In this document: in pieces, positions 48,997 through 51,900 of the stretch
How the letters are laid out: every line of letters starts with the position of its first letter
How positions within the stretch are numbered: the first letter of the stretch is position 1
Assembly (NCBI GenBank): GCA_045606105.1
Contig: JAZURI010000002.1
Coordinates: 192,001 to 256,000, forward strand
Length of the DNA stretch: 64,000 bases
Source: Spirochaetia bacterium
GTDB taxonomy: Bacteria > Spirochaetota > Spirochaetia > CADAEX01
Reading direction: 5' to 3'
The notes under the pieces: generated by a model
What the model saw: only the letters and a program-made list of their open reading frames with translations
Database searches by the model: none
What the model was told of the DNA's origin: nothing
Made by a program: the position numbers and the translations under genes

Positions 48997-49281
48997 ATGG
49001 TTAAATTCTTTTGTAGAATTTTTAAAAAAGTAATTGATATTGTCTGTGTTGTGGTATTAATTATCAACACACTGTTCGGTTTTATCTTTTTCGGAAACAG
49101 CGGCAGTGATTTTTACAGCGGATTCAACTTCGGATCAGCTCTTTTCGGCGGAATCTTGAGTTTTGCATTAACTTTCCTGATACTTATGTTCGTAATTCCT
49201 CCGGTAATGATACTTTTCAGCATCGACAGCAGACTGGAAAATATCGAAAAAAAGATGAATATCGGGAAAGAAGATATCTGA
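48997..49281 (+). CDS. Small hypothetical membrane protein (2 TM)
   Basis: Two hydrophobic segments and an IDSRLENIE tail; TTGACT-17-TAAAAT promoter with ATG 6 nt later. Confidence 0.7.
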   Translation: MVKFFCRIFKKVIDIVCVVVLIINTLFGFIFFGNSGSDFYSGFNFGSALFGGILSFALTFLILMFVIPPVMILFSIDSRLENIEKKMNIGKEDI

Positions 49282-49293
49282 TCAGGGTAAAAC

Positions 49294-50319
49294 ATGCCAC
49301 TTGAAATAGTACGAAACGACATAACAACGATGAAGGTTGATGCCATTGTCAATGCTGCCAACGAGTCCCTTCTGGGGGGCGGCGGTGTGGATGGCTGCAT
49401 ACACAGAGCCGCAGGGCCGGAGCTTCTTGCAGAGTGCCGGACCCTCGGTGGCTGCAGGACAGGGAATGCAAAAATCACGGGAGGCTACAGGCTTCCGGCA
49501 AAATATGTGATTCATACGGTGGGTCCTGTCTACAGGGACGGATTACATGGGGAAAAGGCTCTTCTTGAATCCTGTTACCGGGAATCCCTTTCCCTGGCCT
49601 TGGAAAACGAATGCAGAACTGTGGCCTTTCCTTTGATTTCTTCTGGTATCTACGGTTATCCCAAGGATCAGGCCCTGAAGGTGGCCATCGATATCATCAG
49701 CAGTTTTCTTCTGGAAAACGATATGACTGTCTACATAGTCATCTTTGACAGGAAAGCCTACAGGATCAGTGAAAAGCTTTTTTCCGACATATCTGAATAC
49801 ATAGACGATAATTATGTAGAAAAACATACAGAACCAAAAGCTGAAAGACTCAGGCGACAGAAACTGAACCTCTTTGAAGCTGACATGATATGTGCAACTG
49901 CAAAGATATGTGAAACTACAAAGATAAGCGGCTTCGAAAACTGTACGGACGAACTCAACCGGCTTCTGAAGCAGACTGACGAAAGTTTCTCACAGATGCT
50001 TCTCAGGAAAATCGATGAAAAAGGTCTTACCGATGCCCAATGCTACAAGAAAGCCAACATAGACCGGAAGCTTTTCTCTAAAATCAGGAGCGACAAGTTT
50101 TATAAGCCCAGCAAGCCTACTGTCATAGCCTTTGCCATAGCGCTGGAGCTTTCCCTTGATGAAACAGAGGATATGCTGAGGAAGGCGGGATTTGCCCTTT
50201 CACACAGCAACAAGTTCGACATCATAATCGAATATTTCATAAACCGGGGCATTTACAACATTTTCGAGATCAATGAGGTGCTTTTTGCCTTTGACCAGAA
50301 TCTTTTGGGAGCAGGATAA
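49294..50319 (+). CDS. MacroD-type macrodomain (ADP-ribose binding/hydrolase) fused to a C-terminal XRE-like HTH domain
   Basis: [45 protein letters not shown]-terminal [37 protein letters not shown]-like region. Confidence 0.9.
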
Positions 50320-50320
50320 A

Positions 50321-51076
50321 ATGGGAGTTTACAATATTTATTACAGCCCTACCGGGGGAACAAAAAAAGTTTCGGACATAGTGGCCGGAGCAATGAATAA
50401 AGATGCGGTAATCATCGACCTTCTGAAAAAGGATGACTTCGGCCGGGAATTTGCCGAGAAAGATATCTGTATAATGTCTGCACCTGCATTCGGGGGAAGA
50501 ATTCCTCAGGATATGGCAGAAAAGATAAAGACCTTCAAGGGGAACGGAGCAAATGCGGTTCTTGTGGCCGTATTCGGAAACAGGGCCATTGACGATACGC
50601 TGGCTGAGCTTCAGGATCTGGCTGCCGGTGCGGGCTTCAAGGTAACAGCGGGAATCGAAGCGGTGGCAGAGCACTCCCTTGCAAGGATGTACGGAGCAGG
50701 AAGACCTGATATTGAGGACAGGACCGAGCTTGAGGCATTTGTCGGAAAGATAATGGAAAAATATCAGAACCGGGATTTCAGCTTACCGGAGATTCCTGGA
50801 AAAAGACCATACAAGCAGTTCACGCCGTCACCCATGAAGCCGGTGGTGGATAATAATTGTACCGATTGTAAAAAATGTGCCATGGAATGCCCTGTGGATG
50901 CCATACCTATGGATAATGTGAAAGCTGTGGATGGAGAAAAATGTTTTCTTTGCATGCACTGTGCTGCCGTATGTCCGCAGAAGGCCAGAAATCATTCACC
51001 TGAAATCATGAAGGCCATAGAGGAAAGACTCCGCCCATTCTGTTCCGAAAGAAAACCGAACAGGCTCTACATTTAG
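50321..51076 (+). CDS. EFR1-type flavodoxin-fold plus 2x[4Fe-4S] ferredoxin protein
   Basis: YYSPTGGTKKV, PAFGGRIP, FGNRAIDDTL; CTDCKKCAMECP and CFLCMHCAAVCP. Confidence 0.88.
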   Translation: MGVYNIYYSPTGGTKKVSDIVAGAMNKDAVIIDLLKKDDFGREFAEKDICIMSAPAFGGRIPQDMAEKIKTFKGNGANAVLVAVFGNRAIDDTLAELQDLAAGAGFKVTAGIEAVAEHSLARMYGAGRPDIEDRTELEAFVGKIMEKYQNRDFSLPEIPGKRPYKQFTPSPMKPVVDNNCTDCKKCAMECPVDAIPMDNVKAVDGEKCFLCMHCAAVCPQKARNHSPEIMKAIEERLRPFCSERKPNRLYI

Positions 51077-51084
51077 GATAAATT

Positions 51085-51128
51085 GTCGCATGGCATGCGA
51101 CCAAACCTCTCTTTAAAAATTGTAGGAT
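51085..51128 (+). promoter_or_regulatory. Palindromic operator and -10 box upstream of the vWA gene
   Basis: GTCGCA-TGGCA-TGCGAC (51085-51101); TAGGAT at 51123-51128 with no recognisable -35. Confidence 0.55.
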
Positions 51129-51158
51129 GAATCATCAGATAAAAAGAGAGGTTTAAAA

Positions 51159-51815
51159 ATGAAAAATAATAACGACATTACAGAACTGGTATTCATCCTG
51201 GACAGAAGCGGCTCCATGCAGGGCCTTGAAAAGGATACAATCGGGGGCTTCAATGCCATGATCGAGAAGCAGAAGCAGCAGCATTCAGCCTGTTATGTTT
51301 CCACAATCCTTTTTGACCATGAAAGCAAGGTGATCCACGACAGGGAAAAGATCATGGAAGTATCTCCCATGACAGAGAATGACTACTATGTAGGAGGAAG
51401 CACCGCACTTCTGGATGCAATCGGAGGAGCAATCCATCATATAGGAAAGCTTCATAAGTACTTCGGTGGAGATGCCCCGTCAAAAACCATGTTCATGATT
51501 ACCACGGACGGAATGGAAAATGCAAGCCGCCGTTATGATGCAGCCACCGTAAAGATGATGATTGAAAGACAGAAGGAAAAATACGGATGGGAATTCATCT
51601 TCATCGGAGCAAATATAGATGCGGTGGAAACAGCCGCAGGATTCGGAATTGAAGCCGACAGAGCCGTGAACTACAATGCCGACAAGATCGGAACAAAGAT
51701 ACTGTACGAATCGGTGGCCGAAGTTGTCTGCAGCCTGAGAGCCTCAGCCCCTATCGACAAATCCTGGAAAAAGAACCTGGATGACGACTACAGGAAACGG
51801 GGCAGAAGAAAGTAA
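51159..51815 (+). CDS. Stand-alone von Willebrand factor A domain protein
   Basis: MIDAS motif ILDRSGSM; TALLDAIG, ITTDGMENAS, WEFIFIGAN. Confidence 0.9.
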   Translation: MKNNNDITELVFILDRSGSMQGLEKDTIGGFNAMIEKQKQQHSACYVSTILFDHESKVIHDREKIMEVSPMTENDYYVGGSTALLDAIGGAIHHIGKLHKYFGGDAPSKTMFMITTDGMENASRRYDAATVKMMIERQKEKYGWEFIFIGANIDAVETAAGFGIEADRAVNYNADKIGTKILYESVAEVVCSLRASAPIDKSWKKNLDDDYRKRGRRK

Positions 51816-51840
51816 GAGCTTAGGAGGATAAAATTATCTG

Positions 51841-51900
51841 ATATATTATGGGAAATATTTTTAACAGCCTCAGCGCTGTTATCCCATAATATATTTTTTT
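51841..51900 (+). terminator. Long hairpin terminator after the vWA gene
   Basis: ATATATTATGGGA pairs with TCCCATAATATAT around an inner TAACAGC/GCTGTTA stem; T run follows. Confidence 0.65.

Follow-up and report, generated by a model that had tools for sequence, protein, structure and literature searches.

A stretch of 64,000 nucleotides (nt) from a Spirochaetia bacterium (GenBank assembly GCA_045606105.1, contig JAZURI010000002.1, positions 192,001 to 256,000, forward strand), referred to here as the window, carries a compact row of + strand genes at 48997-51815, as read from its list of open reading frames (ORFs). The row includes an ORF of 341 amino acids (aa) at 49294-50319 (+ strand), which encodes a putative regulator joining a macrodomain to a predicted helix-turn-helix (HTH) domain, hereafter macro-HTH. 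A gene of the EFR1 flavodoxin/4Fe-4S ferredoxin family (50321-51076, + strand; NF038196, 84.4 bits compared with a cut-off of 75) begins one base past the regulator stop codon and is followed, after a gap of 82 nt, by the gene of a stand-alone vWA protein of 218 aa (51159-51815, + strand). Three elements are located in this gap: a putative operator palindrome, GTCGC-N7-GCGAC, at 51085-51101 with its center at 51093; a -10 box, TAGGAT, at 51123-51128 (+ strand), belonging to a predicted promoter without a -35 element; and an RNA hairpin at 51103-51154 (+ strand) that covers the Shine-Dalgarno (SD) region of the vWA gene. We consider it probable that the regulator and the vWA gene constitute a two-gene module, in which the macro-HTH protein, as a one-component factor, binds the palindrome and activates the vWA gene with an ADP-ribose-type ligand as input.

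The putative macro-HTH regulator and its vWA partner

The N-terminal part of the regulator (residues 1-165; 49294-49788, + strand) is a MacroD-type macrodomain. The Macro profile (PF01661) was matched with E = 4e-47 and 159.4 bits, compared with a cut-off of 22, and NF001664, which describes O-acetyl-ADP-ribose deacetylases, scored 216.7 bits against a cut-off of 200. The translation carries NAAN-x-GGGGVD and SSGIYGYP. Both of the patterns that we take to define catalytic-type macrodomain motifs, N-x6-GG[VLI]D and G[VIA][YF]G, are present (N23 to residue 33 and G118-IYG121, respectively) and are invariant in an alignment of 32 relatives. The model of the domain has a predicted local distance difference test (pLDDT) value of >90, and among known structures it most closely resembles human MacroD2, E. 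coli YmdB, and Oceanobacillus MacroD (OiMacroD), with E values of 6e-19 to 1e-14. A first-pass annotation of this DNA had described a MacroD domain with intact NAAN, GGGGVD, and SSGIYG loops, which is confirmed by Pfam, NF001664, and the motifs. Judging from its sequence features, the macrodomain looks catalytically competent, that is, able both to bind and to remove ADP-ribose. It is followed by a linker (residues 166-227; 49789-49974, + strand), partly helical according to alignment and model, which varies in length and sequence among relatives and for which the pLDDT falls below 50 at residues 195-209.

The C-terminal part (residues 228-341; 49975-50319, + strand) is predicted to be a DNA-binding and dimerization module, consisting of a Cro/C1-type HTH with two extra helices. 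When modelled alone, it reaches a pLDDT of 95.1 and displays five helices, followed by two more. The leading Foldseek matches are all XRE (Cro/C1) DNA binders, namely Stl, DdrO, C.Esp1396I, SinR, the 434 repressor, and ClgR, with a probability of 0.9-0.99, a template modeling (TM) score of 0.65-0.81, and a root-mean-square deviation of 2-3 Å over 60-75 residues, at E values of 0.03-1.4. The structural check that had been proposed for this domain thus gave a confident fold with Cro/C1 HTH DNA binders as its matches. A search of PDB sequences with the domain gave no match; a distant homologue from Ruminococcus albus (40% identical) passes the cut-off of Pfam HTH_26, at 23.0 compared with 22. The sequence of the domain is near-invariant across relatives, and 81 of them share the presumed recognition helix, R258-R265, without change. 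Furthermore, the prediction of a homodimer passed with a score of 0.68, the best control scoring 0.00. For calibration, 20 of 30 proteins solved as same-chain pairs attained this score, as did 1 of 23 solved as single chains, counts that hold only roughly here, where our own alignment was used. Contact agreement in the prediction runs was at least 97% and the partner pLDDT at least 89, and the predicted interface is a near-invariant stretch of 13 residues of the domain.

The N-terminal partners of this C-terminal domain were surveyed in 144 cluster representatives whose N-terminal part spans 40 aa or more. A macrodomain profile match was present in 57 of the 144, and the other 87 were heterogeneous, with the largest group numbering 8; these non-macro forms are probably fragments or chimeras. 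As functional evidence the N-terminal partners were rejected; many of the 87 retain the post-macro linker alone or carry apparent adapter-derived junk. Among the 50%-identity cluster representatives P0242-P0391, many that carry the C-terminal domain begin with unrelated or truncated sequence, and P0255 holds repeated VSYTHL-type peptides, which are presumably sequencing-adapter artefacts. Apparent domain diversity in such protein collections needs careful reading.

The vWA gene would be the regulated output of the module. Its protein has a complete metal ion-dependent adhesion site (MIDAS), whose residues (D15, S17, S19, T82, and D117) do not vary among 30 relatives, nor does the basic tail. 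Beside the MIDAS lies an HH-x4-H patch, IHHIG-x-x-HKY (H93, H94, and H99; residues 93-99, 51435-51455), equally invariant in the 30 aligned relatives, which may be a second metal or ligand site. The stand-alone MIDAS vWA protein named in the first-pass annotation is upheld as regards the complete MIDAS, while its Pfam matches remain sub-threshold in the window protein (VWA_CoxE 18.2 against 26.4 bits; VWA_2 E = 0.19). Close relatives reach or approach the cut-offs (P0430, VWA_CoxE 27.0 against 26.4; P0498, VWA 23.7 against 23.8), and ESM Atlas clusters at 0.98-0.99 carry the vWA name, which is taken as a lead only. Searches of the PDB with the single sequence and with a profile gave chance-level matches only. 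The protein matches phrog_7371, a family of unknown function, with E = 4e-55, and relatives at 32-39% identity are found in 219 phage records, with hosts or names including Streptomyces, Microbacterium, Pseudomonas, Myxococcus Mx1, and Xanthomonas XacN1. In three phage regions (L087, L088, and L089), these distant homologues occupy early or DNA-metabolism neighborhoods, and no clear ADP-ribose link was seen there except for a DUF4326/SLOG gene 2 kb away in Mx1. Some Microbacterium phages label the vWA relative as a DNA ligase, which looks like a mislabel.

Longer forms of the vWA protein connect it with ADP-ribose removal. A search for such forms gave 261 proteins at E ≤ 0.001 among 1287 candidates. 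Among the 120 listed, 82 carry an ADP-ribosylglycohydrolase (ARH; PF03747), 9 SIMPL, and 2 Macro. All five of the fusions checked have the ARH at residues 1-235/239 and the vWA domain at the C-terminus, and the window protein is 67% identical to the C-terminal half of one ARH-vWA fusion over 217 residues. Moreover, an ARH gene lies directly 3' of the vWA gene at one locus (L053). It follows from these fusions and this adjacency that the vWA family belongs with ADP-ribose removal independently of its neighbor regulator.

Linkage between the two genes was analyzed across related loci. Species-representative genomes were scanned with an alignment of the fusion protein, 574 relatives were confirmed, and the best-scoring 80 of the 574 were taken as the loci for analysis. 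A vWA homologue is located downstream of the regulator, on the same strand, in 69 of the 80 loci (tblastn of the window proteins); these matches include four that are incomplete, two at contig ends, one frameshifted, and one a remnant of 37 aa. Among the 11 loci without a vWA match, eight have less than 2.2 kb downstream, and one retains the palindrome and promoter, with the gene lost. The co-occurrence of regulator and vWA expected in the first-pass annotation is accordingly found, in contexts that are otherwise variable. When all ORFs of at least 70 aa were clustered across the loci, the recurrent families were the regulator, the vWA protein, an ArsC/glutaredoxin-like family (30 loci), and a 100-aa family (11 loci), with all others in 8 loci or fewer. 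The gap between regulator and vWA serves as a cargo slot, which can be empty or hold an ArsC-like gene, a Tag glycosylase, a Y-family polymerase with a YolD-like gene, McrBC-like, DUF262-like, or exonuclease III-like genes, or the 100-aa family, which is Cys-rich. In the window the cargo is EFR1. The first-pass annotation had listed EFR1 between the regulator and the palindrome: the gene is present and above its family cut-off, but a homologue occurs in only 1 of the 80 loci (tblastn), far from the regulator-vWA pair, so that membership was ruled out and EFR1 is a window-specific insertion between regulator and target. The small ORF upstream and the DUF3793, radical SAM, GNAT, and DUF6675 genes were likewise ruled out as members (0/80 loci). 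As regards abundance, at least 8000 sequence clusters exist for each of the regulator and vWA proteins, and the hosts of the module are human and animal gut Clostridia, Negativicutes, Bacilli, and one gut phage. Carriers available in culture include Pseudoflavonifractor, Faecalibacterium sp. An122, and Selenomonas ruminantium TAM6421.

The palindrome, predicted promoter and hairpin upstream of the vWA gene

In the window, the palindrome lies 8 nt past the upstream stop codon and is a perfect 8+1+8 repeat, GTCGCATG-G-CATGCGAC; the operator-carrying sequence in this region is GTCGCATGGCATGCGAC. It is unique in the window, where 0.10 matches are expected at ≤3 mismatches. For comparison, 68 defined vWA starts were used, comprising 67 loci and the window. 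The palindrome is found 5' of the vWA gene in 68/68, as an exact copy within 200 nt in 65 and with one mismatch in 3. Across the 80 loci (1.03 Mb), exact GTCGC-N7-GCGAC occurs 69 times, in 69 loci, compared with 0-3 occurrences for each other spacer from 3 to 11. Two exact palindromes (L075:4891 and L078:383) are located away from any vWA gene and are without the usual TTT/CC flanks; they fit chance, since about one match per megabase is expected by our arithmetic.

The distance from the palindrome to the -10 box is fixed. A TAnnnT hexamer is located exactly 21 nt past the palindrome in 67 of the 68 sequences, the remaining one (L047) having 20 nt. The hexamers are TATAAT in 15, TATACT in 15, TACAAT in 13, and TAGAAT in 8, with TAAAAT (6), TAAGAT (5), TATCCT (3), and TAGGAT (2) being rarer. 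The spacer of 21 nt is present as 63 distinct sequences, forming at least three groups that cannot be aligned with each other. At a spacing of 16-18 nt, the best -35 match is ≤3/6 in 68/68, and a TGn extension is present in 5/68. Such a fixed spacing across diverged spacer sequence speaks for a unit at the level of DNA, with a putative dimer site at -42 and a promoter without a -35 element. In the window the predicted transcription start (+1) would be near 51135, which places the center of the palindrome at about -42, the geometry of lambda cI at OR2 and the classic class II activation position. Both the coordinates and the geometry given in the first-pass annotation, including the lack of a -35 element, were reproduced, and its prediction that GTCGC-N7-GCGAC would recur at a fixed distance from the -10 box is borne out by the relatives. 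Autoregulation through the same site was considered and rejected: there is one palindrome per locus, and none 5' of the regulator gene in the tandem arrangement. Only in a divergent variant, L086, is the palindrome near the regulator start.

Beyond the palindrome, inverted-repeat scanning, folding, and covariation reveal a hairpin that was absent from the first-pass annotation. Its 5' arm, AAACCTCTCTTT (51103-51114), pairs with the SD region of the vWA gene, AAAGAGAGGTTT. The 3' arm (51143-51154) is the vWA ribosome-binding region, and the arms are 12 nt long and 100% complementary. The intergenic RNA has a fold energy of -27.4 kcal/mol, with z = -4.9 compared with shuffles. SD pairing was analyzed at 64 loci, after three with long leaders and one in which no SD was found had been dropped. 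For RNA from the end of the palindrome to the start codon, the median energy is -23.8 kcal/mol and SD pairing has a mean of 0.92, exceeding 0.8 in 53/64. For RNA from the predicted +1, the corresponding values are -3.0 kcal/mol and 0.28, with 1/64 exceeding 0.8. The -10 box is located inside the 5' arm of the hairpin or at its foot. An alignment of 49 of the 68 sequences was submitted to RNAalifold, from which 3 with very long leaders and 16 others with long leaders, mostly of a third group of relatives, were excluded. Compensatory changes were observed in 4 of the 8 pairs of the anti-SD helix, while the 5 pairs of the palindrome are invariant and its loop varies freely. In the third group, a hairpin followed by a T run precedes the SD and resembles a terminator. 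A scan of 48500-52500 against Rfam at E ≤ 1 found no family. The hairpin probably insulates the vWA gene from upstream read-through, and RNA of the regulated promoter would escape the hairpin.

The same arrangement is found on mobile elements. In a complete gut phage genome of 64 kb (Ca. Heliusvirales), macro-HTH is followed by a 151-aa gene, the palindrome and, after 21 nt, TATTCT, with vWA coming last, and the regulator-vWA pair with the palindrome is also present on a second phage-labelled contig and on a megaplasmid of Niallia taxi (Bacilli). Selenomonas ruminantium pSRC2 (Negativicutes; L083) has two copies of palindrome-21 nt-TAGAAT, one located 5' of the vWA gene and the other preceding an ADP-ribosylglycohydrolase ORF of 310 aa (4432-5364; Pfam E = 2.4e-32). 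This ORF is missing from the distributed gene table. An EEP-family gene upstream and AAA_28 and Nudix genes downstream on pSRC2 fit nucleotide and ADP-ribose metabolism. Across 86 related loci, an ADP-ribosylglycohydrolase gene occurs in 3. The ADP-ribose theme of the first-pass annotation is strengthened by the hydrolase gene behind the second Selenomonas operator, together with the frequent ARH-vWA fusions. A rearranged form is represented by one example, L086 (Subdoligranulum variabile record, 3088-4339). Here the C-terminal domain belongs to a short protein without a macrodomain, whose gene diverges from that of a vWA-like protein; the two genes flank the palindrome, which is separated by 20 nt from a TAAAAT on the strand of the vWA-like gene. 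The non-macro protein is apparently split over two ORFs, and the MIDAS of the vWA-like protein reads DRSSN.

Other features flank the module in the window. A candidate sigma-70-like promoter, TTGACT-17-TAAAAT (48962-48990, + strand), was identified by consensus match alone (10/12) and would serve an upstream unit of the small ORF, macro-HTH, and EFR1. The small ORF, a hydrophobic one of 94 aa just 5' of the regulator gene (48997-49281, + strand), has neither a Pfam or NCBIfam match nor a homologue across the 80 related loci, and its membership of the module is doubtful. The vWA unit is closed by a terminator-like hairpin with perfect 13-nt arms (51841-51894), followed by a T run (together 51841-51901, + strand), which agrees with the terminator of the first-pass annotation; a simple terminator scan missed it because its loop is long. 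Further downstream, a DUF3793 gene (52104-52676) has a good promoter match 5' of it, TTGACA-17-TAAAGT (52035-52063). The latter is flanked by an imperfect 24-nt inverted repeat of GTTAGTTT/AAACTAAC words (52008-52085), which may be another operator.

Proposed mechanism and alternatives

The mechanism that we propose is as follows. With its MacroD-type macrodomain, variable linker, and dimerizing Cro/C1-type HTH, the regulator would act as a one-component transcription factor, whose dimer would bind the inverted repeat GTCGC-N7-GCGAC. The repeat would belong to a promoter with a -10 box and no -35 element, its center being 42 bp 5' of the start, and there the bound dimer would most likely activate transcription of the vWA gene. 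How active the factor is would depend on whether ADP-ribose, a derivative, or an ADP-ribosylated substrate occupies its macrodomain. In some relatives, the factor would also drive an ADP-ribosylglycohydrolase. The hairpin would sequester the vWA ribosome-binding site only in RNA reading through from upstream, with a terminator taking its place in some relatives. RNA from the regulated promoter would start inside the hairpin and be translatable, so that vWA output would depend on the regulated promoter. Finally, the vWA protein would use its MIDAS to bind proteins and would cooperate with ADP-ribosyl hydrolases on ADP-ribosylated targets.

Several points weigh against this mechanism. The macrodomain seems catalytically active, which is unusual in a pure sensor; an enzyme-type domain acting as sensor has a known precedent in the Nudix domain of NrtR-type regulators. 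The XRE-like HTH of the first-pass annotation is supported by a confident fold and by Cro/C1 fold matches, but in the window protein it stays below Pfam cut-offs (HTH_19, 16.2 compared with 30.2 bits, E = 0.01; HTH_26, 14.8 bits compared with 22, E = 0.034), and no Foldseek match of the C-terminal domain reaches E ≤ 0.001. The 80 loci are nearly all from Clostridia and are related to one another, so that the counts drawn from them cannot be treated as independent. Neither vWA nor palindrome is present at two loci for which 8 kb downstream is available, and one other locus has the remnant alone. The compensatory changes in the anti-SD helix come mostly from one clade, and the palindrome also folds as an RNA hairpin, its invariant pairs being neutral for or against an RNA stem. 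PADLOC 2.0, which includes DarTG, found no system for macro-HTH or vWA at E ≤ 0.1; its only match was that of the EFR1 Fe-S motif to BrxP.

The alternative that survives best concerns the sign of regulation. The macro-HTH dimer could be a repressor, bound just 5' of the -10 box and released by ADP-ribose as in NrtR-type regulators. The ADP-ribose-responsive one-component factors known or predicted in section 3.8 of PMC9503650 and in PMC2330246 are negative regulators. Several of the top fold matches (Stl, DdrO, and SinR) are repressors, and many of the -10 boxes in relatives are strong, with TATAAT in 15/68 and TACAAT in 13/68. However, the absence of a usable -35 element at every one of the 68 starts and the scarcity of TGn imply that the promoter should be weak without help. 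Moreover, the site overlaps neither the -10 box nor the start, and its center at -42 is where a class II activator such as lambda cI at OR2 binds. We regard repression as rather unlikely.

It is improbable that the palindrome and hairpin are instead RNA elements, such as a 3' stabilizer, a processing site, or a protein-binding leader, with TAnnnT not being a promoter and the vWA gene being controlled post-transcriptionally within a polycistronic transcript. The folding of the intergenic RNA, far better than that of shuffles (z = -4.9), would suit such elements, as would the second hairpin, which covaries and hides the SD, and the location of the palindrome directly 3' of the upstream stop codon in the window and at many loci. 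Yet the arms of the palindrome never covary, with 5/5 pairs invariant in the 49 sequences, and its distance from TAnnnT is fixed across 63 distinct spacers while the position of the hairpin differs between groups. Some relatives retain the -10 box despite the mismatch that results in the stem, the divergent palindrome of L086 serves the opposite strand, and no match to Rfam was found in the scanned region. From its pattern of conservation, the palindrome seems better explained as the DNA target of a dimeric protein than as an RNA stem, because its arms are invariant without compensatory change and its spacing from the -10 box is fixed despite divergence of the spacer. The same two features answer the concern of the first-pass annotation that it might act merely as an RNA hairpin.

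A further account, which we find quite improbable, holds that another factor binds the palindrome, while the C-terminal domain of the macro protein dimerizes, tethers the hydrolase to DNA, or binds the vWA protein. The HTH assignment depends on a model and modest fold scores, and the macrodomain resembles an active enzyme, both of which would be compatible with this account. It is opposed by the way in which the pair and the site travel together on chromosomes, plasmids, and a phage, across bacterial classes and with nothing else conserved, by the invariance of both the recognition helix and the half-sites, and by the predicted symmetry of the dimer. Lastly, a toxin-antitoxin-like pair, with vWA as harmful effector and macro-HTH as antidote and controller by analogy with DarG, is very unlikely: macrodomain antitoxins exist (DarTG), HTH antitoxins that autoregulate their own operons are common, and the module is found on mobile elements, but ADP-ribosyltransferases and other toxin families are absent, PADLOC matched neither protein, the vWA domain is fused to a repair-type ADP-ribosylglycohydrolase in 82 of the 120 longer forms listed, and some loci, in a comparison made among those with the regulator, have lost or broken vWA yet retain the regulator.

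Significance and relation to known systems

ADP-ribosylation and NAD-derived signals are central to phage defense, toxin action, and stress responses. To our knowledge, sensing of ADP-ribose signals at the level of transcription is known for Nudix-type regulators only. The module would add a second, unrelated type of sensor, the macrodomain, together with a 17-bp operator, an output of one gene, and a built-in insulator hairpin; with sensor, operator, output, and insulator so defined, the module is directly testable by gel shifts and reporters. A more far-reaching interpretation is that the regulator represents the first macrodomain-based transcription factor, an enzyme-sensor of ADP-ribosylation which, from GTCGC-N7-GCGAC at -42, turns on a vWA adaptor bringing ADP-ribosyl hydrolases to proteins that carry the modification. 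This interpretation is put forward tentatively, as a possibility that may well fail. If it were true, the ADP-ribosylation signal would come from ADP-ribosyltransferases of phages or toxins or from NAD-cleaving immune enzymes, and the module would represent a widespread circuit of ADP-ribosylation surveillance and repair in gut Bacillota, captured by phages presumably to blunt ADP-ribose-based host defense. The module itself also offers a first lead to the function of this stand-alone vWA family, which is widespread in phages and fused to ADP-ribosylglycohydrolases, and an ADP-ribose-responsive promoter could serve as a biosensor part. In agreement with the view of the first-pass annotation that the system is undescribed, a literature search found no description of a macrodomain-HTH regulator or of a macro-vWA module.

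Parts of the module have recognizable counterparts. The N-terminal 165 residues of the regulator are like the MacroD/YmdB O-acetyl-ADP-ribose deacetylases in sequence, motifs, and fold. Those enzymes stand alone, whereas the regulator adds an extension of 175 residues that ends in the predicted HTH-dimerization module. The C proteins of restriction-modification systems and the lambda and 434 repressors are likewise small dimers of the Cro/C1 HTH type; the inverted repeats to which they bind overlap the -35 position, and they activate from there. In contrast to the regulator, they are without a sensor or enzyme domain, and a PDB sequence search gave no significant similarity between them and its C-terminal domain.

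Among predicted systems, the module is closest to the ADP-ribosylglycohydrolase (ARG)-centered ones of Iyer et al. 2022, which are predicted in section 3.8 of PMC9503650 to counter viral ADP-ribosylation. According to that section, these systems share with the module an ADP-ribose-removing enzyme, an ADP-ribose-sensing one-component factor, a vWA protein, which is described there as a "peptide-binding chaperone", and variable accessory genes. Their factors are repressors of the Nudix-HTH or WYL-HTH type, and their hosts are actinobacteria, planctomycetes, and proteobacteria. Here, on the other hand, hydrolase and factor are one Macro-HTH polypeptide, ARG is optional, with none in the window, and the hosts are Bacillota and their phages. 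Section 3.8 of that paper names Macro solely as an accessory found now and then, and it contains no Macro-HTH factor. The module is an analogue of the ARG-centered systems, the nearest among predicted ones, and not a member of them.

Among characterized regulators, the comparison leads to NrtR. Like the regulator here, NrtR is a one-component factor that combines an ADP-ribose-binding domain of enzyme type with a DNA-binding one, and it recognizes palindromic operators located close to the genes that it controls (PMC2330246, cited in section 3.8 of PMC9503650). The sensor of NrtR is N-terminal and Nudix-like, and its DNA-binding domain is a winged helix, whereas the regulator here has a macrodomain, without any Nudix match, and a C-terminal five-helix HTH predicted to be of Cro/C1 type. 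NrtR targets genes of NAD synthesis and represses them; here the target would be vWA, sometimes with an ADP-ribosylglycohydrolase, and the position of the operator suggests activation. By analogy, the macro-HTH regulator would work like NrtR without being a member of its family, and NrtR is its nearest characterized analogue.

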